DNA of 64,000 bases, from NCBI RefSeq assembly GCF_050320075.1, contig NZ_CP190018.1. The stretch is one strand, 5' to 3'. Numbering within the stretch: the stretch's first letter is position 1; each line of letters begins with the position of its first letter. The notes beneath the pieces were generated by a model. It searched no databases. It saw only the letters and a list, made by a program, of their open reading frames with translations, and had not been told where the DNA came from. Shown here one piece after another: positions 29,593 to 31,797 of this stretch. Made by a program: the position numbers and the translations under genes. Origin of the DNA: Escherichia coli (GTDB lineage Bacteria > Pseudomonadota > Gammaproteobacteria > Enterobacterales > Enterobacteriaceae).

Positions 29593-29808
29593 ATGGACCA
29601 GATGGAAAAAATCACAACAGGTGTGTCATACACCACGTCAGCGGTGGGAACGGGCTACTGGTTCCTGCAGTTGCTGGACAGGGTTTCCCCGTCTCAGTGG
29701 GCGGCAATAGGCGTGCTGGGGAGTCTGCTGTTTGGGCTGCTGACATATCTGACTAACCTGTATTTCAAAATCAGAGAGGACCGTCGTAAGGCGGCACGGG
29801 GAGAGTAA
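29593..29808 (+). CDS. Holin, EssD/S21 pinholin type
   Basis: 71 aa [71 protein letters not shown]; close match to recalled K-12 EssD; dual-start M..M. Confidence 0.8.
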
Positions 29809-29812
29809 TTCA

Positions 29813-30157
29813 ATGACTCAAAACTATGAACTGATTGTGAAAGGGATCCGCAATTTTGAGAATAAAGTTACGGTAACTTTAGCATTACAGGACAAAGAAC
29901 GCTTTGACGGTGAAATTTTTGACCTGGACATCTCGCTGGACCGTGTTGAAGGTGCTGCGCTGGAGTTTTATGAGGCAGCGGCCAGAAGGAGCATCAGACA
30001 GGTCTTCCTGGATGTCGCTGCCGGGTTATGTGAAGGGGATGAGCAGTCGCCGGAAAAGCGCCCCGTAATTTTAGAGGCGCAGAATGTATGGATAACCTAC
30101 AAAGGAAAGCTACCGGGAAGGATTACTGGTTCCCTGAAGACTCCGCCGAAATGGTAG
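29813..30157 (+). CDS. Hypothetical protein inserted between holin and endolysin
   Basis: 114-aa ORF, GGAGAG RBS, 5 bp after holin stop. Confidence 0.45.
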   Translation: MTQNYELIVKGIRNFENKVTVTLALQDKERFDGEIFDLDISLDRVEGAALEFYEAAARRSIRQVFLDVAAGLCEGDEQSPEKRPVILEAQNVWITYKGKLPGRITGSLKTPPKW

Positions 30158-30395
30158 TTTTGCCAGCATAATTTTCTTCCAGCAATGCCGCCAGCCACTT
30201 GAAAGAATTTTGTTGTTCCTGGGACCATTTGGGGTTGCGTGATTCAAAATGAATGGATGCCAGCGTTGGCAGCATTTGCTCCCTGGGAATTGATAAGGCC
30301 AGATGTGAAAATGCAACAGTGAGGGCATTTACATCATCCCGAAGCCTGAAAATGCAGTCGAGCAACTCCTGTAGAGAAATGGTGCTATTGTCCAT
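30123..30395 (-). CDS. Hypothetical protein, antisense to late operon
   Basis: 90-aa ORF with AGAGGA RBS; converges on and overlaps previous ORF by 35 bp. Confidence 0.3.
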   Translation of the reverse strand: MDNSTISLQELLDCIFRLRDDVNALTVAFSHLALSIPREQMLPTLASIHFESRNPKWSQEQQNSFKWLAALLEENYAGKTTISAESSGNQ

Positions 30396-30500: not shown

Positions 30501-31034
30501 ATGAACGCAAAAATCAAATACGGCCTGTCAGCTGCAGTTCTGGCGCTGATTGGAGCAGGCGCATCAGCTCCTCAGATACTTGACCAGTTTCTGGATGAAA
30601 AAGAGGGTAACCACACTACGGCATACCGCGATGGTTCCGGCAACTGGACCATCTGTCGGGGGGCCACGATGGTGGATGGAAAACCCGTTTTTCCCGGTAT
30701 GAAACTGTCGAAGGAAAAATGCGACCAGGTCAACGCCATTGAGCGTGATAAGGCGCTGGCATGGGTGGAGAAAAACATCAAAGTGCCATTGAGCGAACCC
30801 CAGAAAGCGGGGATCGCGTCATTCTGTCCGTACAACATTGGTCCCGGTAAGTGTTTCCCGTCGACGTTTTATAAACGAATTAATGCAGGTGATCGCAGGG
30901 GAGCGTGTGAGGCGATTCGCTGGTGGATTAAGGACGGTGGCAGAGACTGCCGTATTCGTTCAAACAACTGCTACGGTCAGGTATCCCGTCGTGACCAGGA
31001 GAGCGCGCTGGCGTGCTGGGGTATCGACAGATAA
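30501..31034 (+). CDS. SAR endolysin (lysozyme family)
   Basis: 177 aa; Gly/Ala-rich N-terminal SAR segment GLSAAVLALIGAGASA; lysozyme-like body; follows holin. Confidence 0.75.
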   Translation: MNAKIKYGLSAAVLALIGAGASAPQILDQFLDEKEGNHTTAYRDGSGNWTICRGATMVDGKPVFPGMKLSKEKCDQVNAIERDKALAWVEKNIKVPLSEPQKAGIASFCPYNIGPGKCFPSTFYKRINAGDRRGACEAIRWWIKDGGRDCRIRSNNCYGQVSRRDQESALACWGIDR

Positions 31035-31232
31035 GCAGAATATTTTGCTGAAAAATAAGGCATGGCCACGCGGGCGGATAACATGAAATCCTGCGAAGTG
31101 GCGAAACGTAAGTGAATAAAAGTAAAAACCCCGTTTGTTGGCACCAAGCGGGGTTTTGTGTTTCCTGACTCCGGAAAAGTCAAAGGAGAAAGTGTGTTTG
31201 ATTTTAGCAAACTGATTCGGGAGATTCGAGTG

Positions 31233-31331
31233 ATGGCTGAAAAATTATCCACCTGGAAGTTCATTCTTATCTGGCTGGTGTTTGTGATTATGGCCTCTGG
31301 TTATTTCATCGGTCAGATACGCTGGTGGTGA
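31233..31331 (+). CDS. Small single-TM peptide (32 aa) translationally coupled to Rz
   Basis: [32 protein letters not shown]; stop 2 nt before Rz ATG. Confidence 0.3.
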
Positions 31332-31332
31332 A

Positions 31333-31797
31333 ATGAACCGCGTACTGTGCGTGGTCATCATTGCCCTGCTGGTGGCCTGTGGTGCGCTTAGTCTGGGGCT
31401 GAATCATTACCGTGATAACGCCATTACCTACAAAGCCCAGCGCGACAAAAATGTCAGAGAACTGAAGCTGGCGAACGCGGCAATTACTGACATGCAGATG
31501 CGTCAGCGTGATGTTGCTGCGCTCGATGCAAAATACACGAAGGAGTTAGCTGATGCGAAAGCTGAAAATGATGCTCTGCGTGATGATGTTGCCGCTGGTC
31601 GTCGTCGGTTGCACATCAAAGCAGTCTGTCAGTCAGTGCGTGAAGCCACCACCGCCTCCGGCGTGGATAATGCAGCCTCCCCCCGATTGGCAGACACCGC
31701 TGAACGGGATTATTTCACCCTCAGAGCGCGACTGATAATAATGCAAAAACAACTTGAAGGGGCACAGCTATACATTCGAGAGCAATGCCTCAGATAA
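31333..31797 (+). CDS. Spanin, inner-membrane subunit (Rz)
   Basis: 154 aa; N-terminal TM then coiled-coil; embedded +1-frame lipoprotein gene. Confidence 0.75.
31553..31735 (+). CDS. Spanin, outer-membrane lipoprotein subunit (Rz1), embedded in Rz
   Basis: 60 aa; lipobox LVVVGC; proline-rich ([15 protein letters not shown]). Confidence 0.65.

Follow-up and report, generated by a model that had tools for sequence, protein, structure and literature searches.

A portable phage cassette encoding a conserved 45-residue membrane peptide, found between the endolysin and Rz genes of a lambdoid lysis cassette in Escherichia coli, with predicted antisense control

The stretch of Escherichia coli DNA considered here (contig NZ_CP190018.1 of assembly GCF_050320075.1; 64,000 nucleotides (nt) in length and referred to throughout as the window) contains a lambdoid lysis cassette in which the genes for the endolysin and the i-spanin Rz are separated by a gap of 298 nt, and this gap holds an open reading frame (ORF) for a small membrane peptide. 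A preliminary description, made from the letters of the sequence, had pointed to a 32-residue ORF at this position. That ORF exists, as is apparent both from the sequence and from the list of ORFs (ATG 31233, 32 codons, TGA 31329-31331), and it does end just short of Rz, with a single base (A, 31332) between its TGA and the Rz ATG at 31333; the assignment of the neighbours as endolysin and Rz is borne out by Pfam. As a statement of the gene boundaries, the description is correct for the short form only. The frame is open further upstream and, since the 13 residues encoded upstream of ATG 31233 are among the best conserved, the conserved gene is a 45-codon form (31194..31331, plus strand), which begins with GTG and encodes a peptide with an amphipathic helix at its N-terminus, then a transmembrane helix, and RWW as its last residues. 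The GTG at 31194 sits 5 nt past AAAGGAGA and is also the start chosen by RefSeq, which annotates the 45-residue product as a hypothetical protein (WP_000459345.1). PHROG 6632 (phage protein without annotated function, with a profile of 45 positions) covers residues 1-45 over their full length (E = 1.2e-29), and the 32-residue form aligns to profile positions 14-45. We conclude that the gene encodes a conserved 45-residue bitopic inner-membrane peptide, and that a portable cassette of ~215 nt (31114-31331), which occurs in the late operons of temperate phages, has the ORF as its payload. That this is a real conserved gene, housed in such a cassette behind a structured leader, is close to certain.

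The ORF had been thought possibly spurious. This is refuted because its frame, when checked across related prophages, is conserved and because the ORF is under purifying selection, with a median ratio of non-synonymous to synonymous substitution rates (dN/dS) of 0.18 among 11 diverged 45-codon copies, in which synonymous sites are saturated (dS >1). The selection on amino acids spans the entire ORF, transmembrane segment included, and the E. coli and E. fergusonii copies differ by 16 synonymous and 9 non-synonymous changes. The length of 45 codons is kept in 80/80 copies in IMG/VR. At least 80% of the endolysin-Rz gap region is present in 870 of 5426 complete E. coli genomes, and the region is also found in many phages that encode Shiga toxin 1 or 2 (Stx1 and Stx2 phages), including H-19B. 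A first protein scan of viral contigs gave near-identical E. coli copies only; homologues were obtained by protein search from E. albertii, E. fergusonii, Salmonella, Citrobacter, Yersinia, Edwardsiella, Sodalis, Pantoea, Providencia, Vibrio, Pseudomonas, Azoarcus, Aquitalea and Pasteurellaceae. The family falls into 58 clusters at a threshold of 50% identity; its conservation is at the level of 30-40% identity, and its frame and length are kept from Escherichia to Pseudomonas, Azoarcus and Pasteurellaceae. AlphaFold2, supplied with the family alignment, predicts helices at residues 4-17 and 20-44 with a break between them (predicted local distance difference test score, pLDDT, 84), the second of which covers the hydrophobic stretch. 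On its N-terminal side the peptide has five basic as against three acidic residues and, by the positive-inside rule, it would be oriented N-in, C-out. Some members of the family end otherwise than in RWW. Searches of the peptide against Pfam, NCBIfam, PADLOC and PDB sequences gave no meaningful match, and PADLOC models matched neither the peptide nor three of its slot-mates. The peptide also has no match to a holin family of Pfam, unlike the S21-type pinholin of the same lysis cassette (29593-29808).

In every context the gene is preceded by a leader of ~80 nt with a fixed order of elements, namely an A-rich tract, a GC hairpin, a T-rich tract, a mini-hairpin, a strong Shine-Dalgarno sequence and a start codon that is usually not ATG. 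The A-rich tract, GAATAAAAGTAAAAA (31114..31128), lies 5' of the hairpin and, read on the minus strand, corresponds to the U-tract of a terminator; it is kept as AAAAGC(G/A)AAA(A/G) in all copies of the cassette, with 8.5 A per 12 nt, compared with 5.0 in generic terminators that match the same search pattern. The GC-rich hairpin (31125..31157), found by a terminator scan, has 13 pairs and a 7-nt loop, is flanked by A- and T-runs and looks like a bidirectional intrinsic terminator. After it come a pyrimidine-rich T-tract, TTTTGTGTTTCC (31154..31165, plus strand; TTTTCTGTTTC in most copies), and the mini-hairpin TGACT-CCGGAAA-AGTCA (31166..31182), which abuts the Shine-Dalgarno sequence. Elsewhere the mini-hairpin has a stem of 4-7 bp and a loop of ~7 nt, and its stem covaries (CCTTG/CAAGG, CGTTA/TAACG, CCTTCTG/CAGAAGG, CCTG/CAGG, CATT/AATG and TAAT/ATTA). 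The Shine-Dalgarno sequence of the long form, AAGGAGA (31183..31189, plus strand; AAGGGAGAA in homologues), lies 5 nt before GTG 31194. GTG is the start codon in enteric bacteria, and TTG that in Edwardsiella, Pseudomonas, Azoarcus and Aquitalea. Both hairpins were recovered by RNAalifold, with compensatory changes in 11/15 pairs. Searched with a covariance model of the leader, the window yields one copy (31115-31211, 90 bits), together with a match to the hairpin on the reverse strand, a mark of the symmetry of the hairpin. The leader is absent from Rfam 15, a search of which with the window and eight related loci gave nothing meaningful; a rimP-leader match on the minus strand (31115-31190) was at chance level and was rejected. 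No description of the cassette or its leader was found in a search of the full-text literature. A promoter scan gave no sigma-70-like sense promoter in the cassette or just upstream, and the space between hairpin and Shine-Dalgarno sequence is too short for one; the sole match of the scan, a minus-strand site at 31316..31287, is not conserved and was set aside.

The conserved DNA has the same upstream starting point in every context and extends precisely to the stop codon; ahead of the hairpin, the sequence varies with the context. Leader and ORF together occupy the endolysin-Rz slots of three different types of lysis cassette. In Salmonella the gene lies between lysozyme and Rz; in E. fergusonii it follows a Phage_holin_8 holin gene and is flanked by the genes for a GH19 endolysin and a DUF2514 spanin. 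In SEN34, Rac-SA53, Yersinia and Pantoea the gene is found between baseplate genes, in a Pseudomonas phage among tail genes and, in one head-gene context, between a Mu-F-like gene and a scaffold gene; other copies adjoin ParE/RelB and HicAB modules near terminase. Two earlier suggestions can be judged in this light. It had been stated that canonical cassettes have no gene here, which is true of K-12 Qin, where rrrQ abuts rzpQ and the unit is missing, and untrue of many prophages of E. coli, Salmonella and E. fergusonii, which regularly hold either this or another small transmembrane gene in the slot. It had also been proposed that the gene could be a lysis-timing factor; this gains no specific support, given that the same gene and leader are found in baseplate, tail, head and toxin-antitoxin contexts and that the gene accompanies unrelated families of holin, endolysin and spanin.

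There are also E. coli prophages with the same endolysin in which the slot has the same leader with a different cargo. One such cargo is a 60-residue ORF of the KYKR type, followed by a 43-49-residue ORF of the MSDKLITL type (loci L118/L120, 1657-1985, here and below in the numbering of each locus). The O157:H7 slot holds a 50-residue variant with the end AIRWW-TGA-T-ATG, one base before Rz (locus L119, 1581-1835). Another small transmembrane gene of the slot, Sakai ECs_5732 (48 residues), ends 7 nt before Rz (locus L124, 1612-1758). The slot cargos are assigned to PHROGs 1115, 4493, 3246, 12997 and 4906, all without annotated function. The O157-type variant has 24 nt inserted behind its Shine-Dalgarno sequence, and these make a mini-ORF of eight codons, MCREVYSL or MGREVLSL, and the TGA of this mini-ORF overlaps the GTG start of the peptide (GTGA; loci L119 ~1660-1690, L165 and L220), an arrangement that looks like an extra layer of translational coupling. 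At other loci the covariance model finds additional copies of the leader ahead of different small transmembrane ORFs, which belong to at least five PHROG families of small transmembrane proteins. Cassettes may also stand in tandem or near to one another, two or three per prophage and each with its own hairpin leader, as in E. fergusonii, in a P0049-encoding locus and in Vibrio salinus; the coordinates are L008/L010 2676-2890, L113 3621-3879 and 5147-5384, and L107 2739-3108, and the L113 cassettes are interleaved with ParE/RelB- and YafQ/RelB-type modules. In Rac-SA53, ~1 kb downstream of the cassette, there is a match to the Rfam small RNA (sRNA) family sRNA-Xcc1, with a score of 78 bits that exceeds the gathering score (L014 4060-4143, minus strand).

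The 32-residue ORF begins at an ATG (31233) that is preceded, with a 9-nt spacer, by the Shine-Dalgarno-like sequence GGGAG (31219..31235 in all, plus strand). The corresponding residue, Met14, does not vary among close homologues and varies little in a somewhat wider set, and the GGGAG-like sequence is found 9-10 nt before it, formed by the rare Arg codon CGG/AGG and then GAG. A tandem copy in Vibrio salinus keeps the internal Shine-Dalgarno sequence and the short form only. In the KYK-type cargos an internal Met is preceded by GAGG, and it is at that Met that RefSeq starts the O157 one. Because Met14 and its Shine-Dalgarno sequence are kept, and in view of the short-only Vibrio copy and the KYK-type parallels, the 32-residue product may be a genuine second isoform. 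The GTG and Met14 starts, each with a Shine-Dalgarno sequence, are 13 codons apart, the dual starts of S105/S107 and of S21 (68/71) being separated by 2-3 codons. At the other end of the gene is the junction GGTGGTGA-A-ATG (31322..31335, plus strand), in which the stop is one base before Rz and the codons TGG TGG TGA resemble a Shine-Dalgarno sequence ahead of the Rz ATG. The TGA-A-ATG junction is present in 79/80 IMG/VR copies; in other contexts the ATG of the next gene follows the stop by 1-10 nt, often without a Shine-Dalgarno sequence of its own. It is likely that the peptide and the downstream gene are translationally coupled, and therefore whatever gates the peptide may also gate the gene that follows.

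Over most of the ORF synonymous variation is free, with Gly36, Arg43 and Val29 each using four codons. There is no such variation in codons 3-6 (GAT TTT AGC AAA, in 12/12 copies or in every copy having the residue) or in codons 10-12 (GAG, TTG, CGA), and codon 9 is CGG or AGG only. Read on the minus strand, codons 3-6 contain a candidate extended -10 element, TGCTAAAAT (31201..31209). A candidate -35 element, TCGAAT (31224..31229, minus strand), can be assigned at a spacing of 17 nt; the rare Arg codon CGA, which gives the T and G of TCGAAT, is invariant in 12/12 enteric copies and in Pseudomonas and Aquitalea. Random synonymous recoding yields an equally good -10 in only ~4% of trials per sequence. 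When IMG/VR was scanned with a DNA pattern of hairpin and T-tract, which contains no protein information, 120 sites were returned, about half of them unrelated terminators that were used as controls. A minus-strand -10-like hexamer at exactly nt 8-13 of the ORF was present in 26 of the 27 distinct small transmembrane ORFs downstream as against 1 of 10 control ORFs, and the mean score was 6.6 at that position and about -4 at all others. This fixed position is common to five unrelated types of N-terminal peptide, although the residues that encode the hexamer differ: D-F-S gives TAAAAT or TAATAT, K-Y-K gives TATACT, I-N-F-S gives TAAAAT, and K-N-N-S or K-E-S-S gives TATTAT or TAGACT. A minus-strand transcript would start ~7 nt past the hexamer, at the start codon, and would cross the Shine-Dalgarno sequence and the mini-hairpin to reach the GC hairpin. 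The positions of promoter and terminator thus define a predicted cis-antisense RNA of ~80 nt (31113..31195, minus strand). Folded as an 83-nt molecule, it is predicted to have a free 5' anti-Shine-Dalgarno stretch, a stem-loop and a terminator (-23.2 kcal/mol, z-score -3.0). In Azoarcus a good U-tract is found in the antisense direction only. The comparative sequence data make it fairly probable that an antisense RNA is produced from the cassette.

The mechanism that we propose is as follows. A promoter within codons 3-12, on the opposite strand, would drive synthesis of the ~80-nt cis-antisense RNA, which would cover the start codon, the Shine-Dalgarno sequence and the leader and end at the hairpin. 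When sense transcription is low, as in a lysogen or under leaky read-through, the RNA would block translation of the peptide and, via UGA-A-AUG, that of Rz. Heavy late transcription of the locus under Q antitermination would then either titrate the antisense RNA or occlude its promoter, which would allow synthesis of the peptide. The least certain step is the last, in which the peptide would most likely perturb the inner membrane late in infection. We assign a probability of roughly 0.5 to the gene encoding an antisense-gated, type I toxin-like membrane peptide that is kept silent in the lysogen and produced under strong late transcription; that the activity of the peptide is membrane-perturbing or lysis-helping is a more tentative suggestion. 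The peptide resembles a type I toxin in being small, in having one transmembrane helix and a basic-aromatic C-terminus, and in its weak GTG/TTG starts. By a published description of type I toxins (Fozo et al. 2010, PMC2887945), these have fewer than 70 residues, a transmembrane helix and a C-terminal tail that is polar or aromatic; the peptide has 45 residues, a transmembrane helix and the polar/aromatic C-terminus QIRWW. Its circumstances are toxin-like as well, in that copies occur in tandem and some neighbours are ParE, RelB and HicAB modules.

A number of observations weigh against this scheme. The best-conserved part of the peptide is the cytoplasmic N-terminal helix and not the transmembrane segment, and a specific protein partner therefore fits better than a simple pore former. 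The candidate -35 element is weak, and copies from Pasteurellaceae do not have the TG extension of the -10. The lack of synonymous variation could have another cause, namely the internal Shine-Dalgarno sequence or structure in the sense mRNA. As to which strand is selected to fold, counts of G-U versus C-A are ambiguous (11 vs 9 for the large hairpin, and mixed for the mini-hairpin), and the hairpin in the window is slightly better on the sense strand. Classical type I loci have a promoter for the toxin gene, and the cassette has no such sense promoter. Finally, no peak in Hfq-CRAC (crosslinking and analysis of cDNA) is found in the endolysin-Rz gaps of the Sakai prophages examined, though the sole gap read by sequence, that of Sp12, has no hairpin cassette: its slot contains an antirepressor moron and a different small transmembrane gene instead. 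The Hfq-CRAC listing has no peak at the expected post-endolysin position in Sp12 or Sp6, the two peaks checked, EcOnc52 (Sp4) and EcOnc33 (Sp6), being located elsewhere. Other published data on enterohaemorrhagic E. coli were also consulted. The sRNAs Pas, AgvB and AsxR map to other places, such as ahead of the holin gene, and were set aside. Neither the peptide nor its O157 variant appears in the supplements of the Sakai ribosome-profiling paper.

A broader version of the proposal, which we advance only tentatively, is that a single conserved RNA front end can be plugged in ahead of small membrane peptides from at least five unrelated families. The front end would consist of the bidirectional terminator, the mini-hairpin, the Shine-Dalgarno sequence and the antisense promoter at nt 8-13 of the ORF. 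The families would be PHROG 6632, PHROGs 1115/4493, PHROG 12997, the INFSG type and others, in late operons of the temperate phages of Gamma- and Betaproteobacteria.

Alternatively, the peptide might be a dedicated lysis accessory for pinholin/SAR (signal-arrest-release) endolysin systems, releasin- or antiholin-like, which tunes endolysin release or the spanins, with the hairpin acting as the terminator of the endolysin gene. Its position between a SAR-type lysozyme and Rz, behind an S21-type pinholin, suits such a role, as do the stop codon one base from the Rz start and the presence in this slot, in other prophages, of different small transmembrane genes; if the peptide is made in two lengths, this would recall the dual start of holins. 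There are precedents among small membrane proteins encoded in or near lysis genes, namely the Mu gp25 releasin, which acts with SAR endolysin/pinholin systems (PMC9239132), and LambdaSo Lcc6, a transmembrane protein of 65 residues that is needed for lysis by pinholin and SAR endolysin (bioRxiv 10.1101/2024.01.23.576932). However, the peptide shows no similarity to gp25 (DUF2730; hhalign probability 0.7%) or to holin families of Pfam. Lcc6 is itself encoded far from the lysis genes, and the present family is also found at a distance from lysis genes. The gene and leader are found in baseplate, tail, head and toxin-antitoxin contexts, and within lysis cassettes the gene also keeps company with a GH19 endolysin, a Phage_holin_8 holin and a DUF2514 spanin. 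The hairpin, moreover, travels with the ORF and not with the endolysin gene. We regard this explanation as unlikely.

No better placed is the view that the gene is an ordinary prophage-expressed moron that benefits the lysogen, for instance by superinfection exclusion, as is reportedly the case for HK97 gp15, and that the hairpin does no more than shield it from transcription of its neighbours. In late operons the gene separates, at several sites, neighbours that otherwise adjoin each other; some phages have several paralogous copies, and some copies lie in accessory islands. In the sense of Juhala et al. 2000, the trait of a moron as an extra gene between genes that are adjacent in related phages is present here. 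The moron layout of an own promoter and a downstream terminator is absent from the cassette, in which the hairpin is upstream and the stop abuts the next gene. A sigma-70-like sense promoter is missing between hairpin and Shine-Dalgarno sequence, where the room is too short, and no terminator follows; because the stop abuts the start of the next gene, expression looks tied to the late operon. Nor is there a PADLOC match. A third explanation would deny the peptide any function and treat the cassette as a translational adapter, in which GGTGGTGA re-delivers ribosomes downstream after an internal terminator. In its favour are the junctions of 1-10 nt in nearly all contexts, often without a separate Shine-Dalgarno sequence, and the Shine-Dalgarno-like character of the WW-stop sequence. 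It is made distinctly improbable by the strong purifying selection on amino acids across the whole ORF, transmembrane segment included, by the maintenance of a protein family at 30-40% identity, and by members that do not end in RWW. That the frame is a chance ORF in a non-coding spacer, as its shortness, its intergenic position and its annotation by RefSeq in some genomes only might suggest, can be dismissed in view of a frame and length kept across bacterial orders, a dN/dS of 0.18, the 58 clusters and the PHROG family.

Returning to the antisense-gated peptide, the predicted layout of the cassette matches those of SymR/SymE and of P22 sar. In the SymE-SymR system, said to have been described by Kawano et al. 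in 2007, the antisense promoter reportedly lies a few nt inside the 5' end of the toxin ORF, and SymR is reported to be ~77 nt long and to cover the start codon and Shine-Dalgarno sequence. The likeness is in the antisense promoter inside the 5' end of the ORF and the short RNA over the start, both of which are predictions for the cassette; the difference is that SymE, a soluble protein of the AbrB fold, is expressed from an SOS promoter of its own, whereas the cassette encodes a 45-residue membrane peptide without a sense promoter. The PeSL cassettes of T4-type phages, attributed to Arbiol et al. in 2010, are said to be stem-loop modules with a sense early promoter. They share with the present cassette a conserved stem-loop regulatory module ahead of many different small ORFs, which could mediate shuffling by recombination; unlike them, the cassette has a promoter-like element that faces the opposite way. 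SymE-SymR is also mentioned in PMC2887945. P22 sar RNA and lambda OOP are phage cis-antisense RNAs (listed in PMC12197685) and, like the RNA predicted here, are short (about 69-77 nt) and phage-encoded, but their targets are ant and cII, their sequences are other, and they are not portable cassettes. With the hydrophobic type I toxins Hok/Sok, Ldr, Ibs, TisB and ZorO the peptide has in common a length below 70 residues, one transmembrane helix, a polar-aromatic C-terminus, tandem copies and an association with mobile elements. It shows no sequence similarity to them, and the cassette differs in conserving a cytoplasmic N-terminal helix and in relying on late-operon transcription. The hokW-sokW pair of prophage Sp5 is made on prophage induction and helps phage release (PMC8621323).

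As far as comparative sequence evidence goes, the architecture of the cassette and its predicted antisense control appear to be new. Were the plug-in proposal to be true, these cassettes would constitute a previously undescribed, horizontally shuffled superfamily of type I toxin-like, antisense-gated units that borrow the late transcription of the phage, in place of a toxin promoter of their own, and hand ribosomes on to the next gene. The cassette would give a function-bearing architecture to several small 'hypothetical' phage proteins that are widespread (about one-sixth of complete E. coli genomes, Stx1 and Stx2 phages included), would place a further level of control by RNA within operons for lysis and morphogenesis, and would explain how tiny genes can be inserted between translationally coupled essential genes without breaking the coupling. 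In Stx-converting phages, factors that affect membrane integrity or spanin expression bear on the timing of lysis and of toxin release. In annotated genomes the gene is frequently overlooked or given the wrong start (32, 37 or 45 residues), and the leader is not in Rfam.

The remaining genes of the lysis cassette in the window can be described briefly. Downstream of the pinholin gene, which was identified by Pfam, as were the three that follow, are a DUF1327/YdfR gene (29813-30157), the endolysin gene (30501-31034), whose product is a Phage_lysozyme protein with a SAR-like N-terminus, and Rz (31333-31797, plus strand; Phage_lysis, PF03245, E = 1e-52). Rz1 (31553-31735, from the ORF list) is embedded within Rz. 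Between the DUF1327 gene and the endolysin gene there is a 90-residue ORF on the minus strand (30123-30395), which overlaps the 3' end of the DUF1327 gene; it is hypothetical in RefSeq (WP_001351274.1) and has no Pfam match. The endolysin gene is intact in the window (177 residues), and has a one-base frameshift in the ATCC 11775 record, CP033092.2, in which the endolysin-Rz gap is otherwise 100% identical to that of the window and the upstream tRNA genes differ. Two tRNA genes lie upstream of the lysis cassette in the window (27333-27408 and 27513-27589), one with anticodon CAT and the other tRNA-Arg (TCT); a tRNA site is usual in the late region of lambdoid phages. The spacer of ~80 nt from the endolysin stop to the peptide cassette (31035-31113) is conserved in E. 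coli and in Salmonella phage SPN3UB. Sakai Sp12 also keeps this spacer, and there the antirepressor moron takes the place of the hairpin cassette directly after GAATAAAG.
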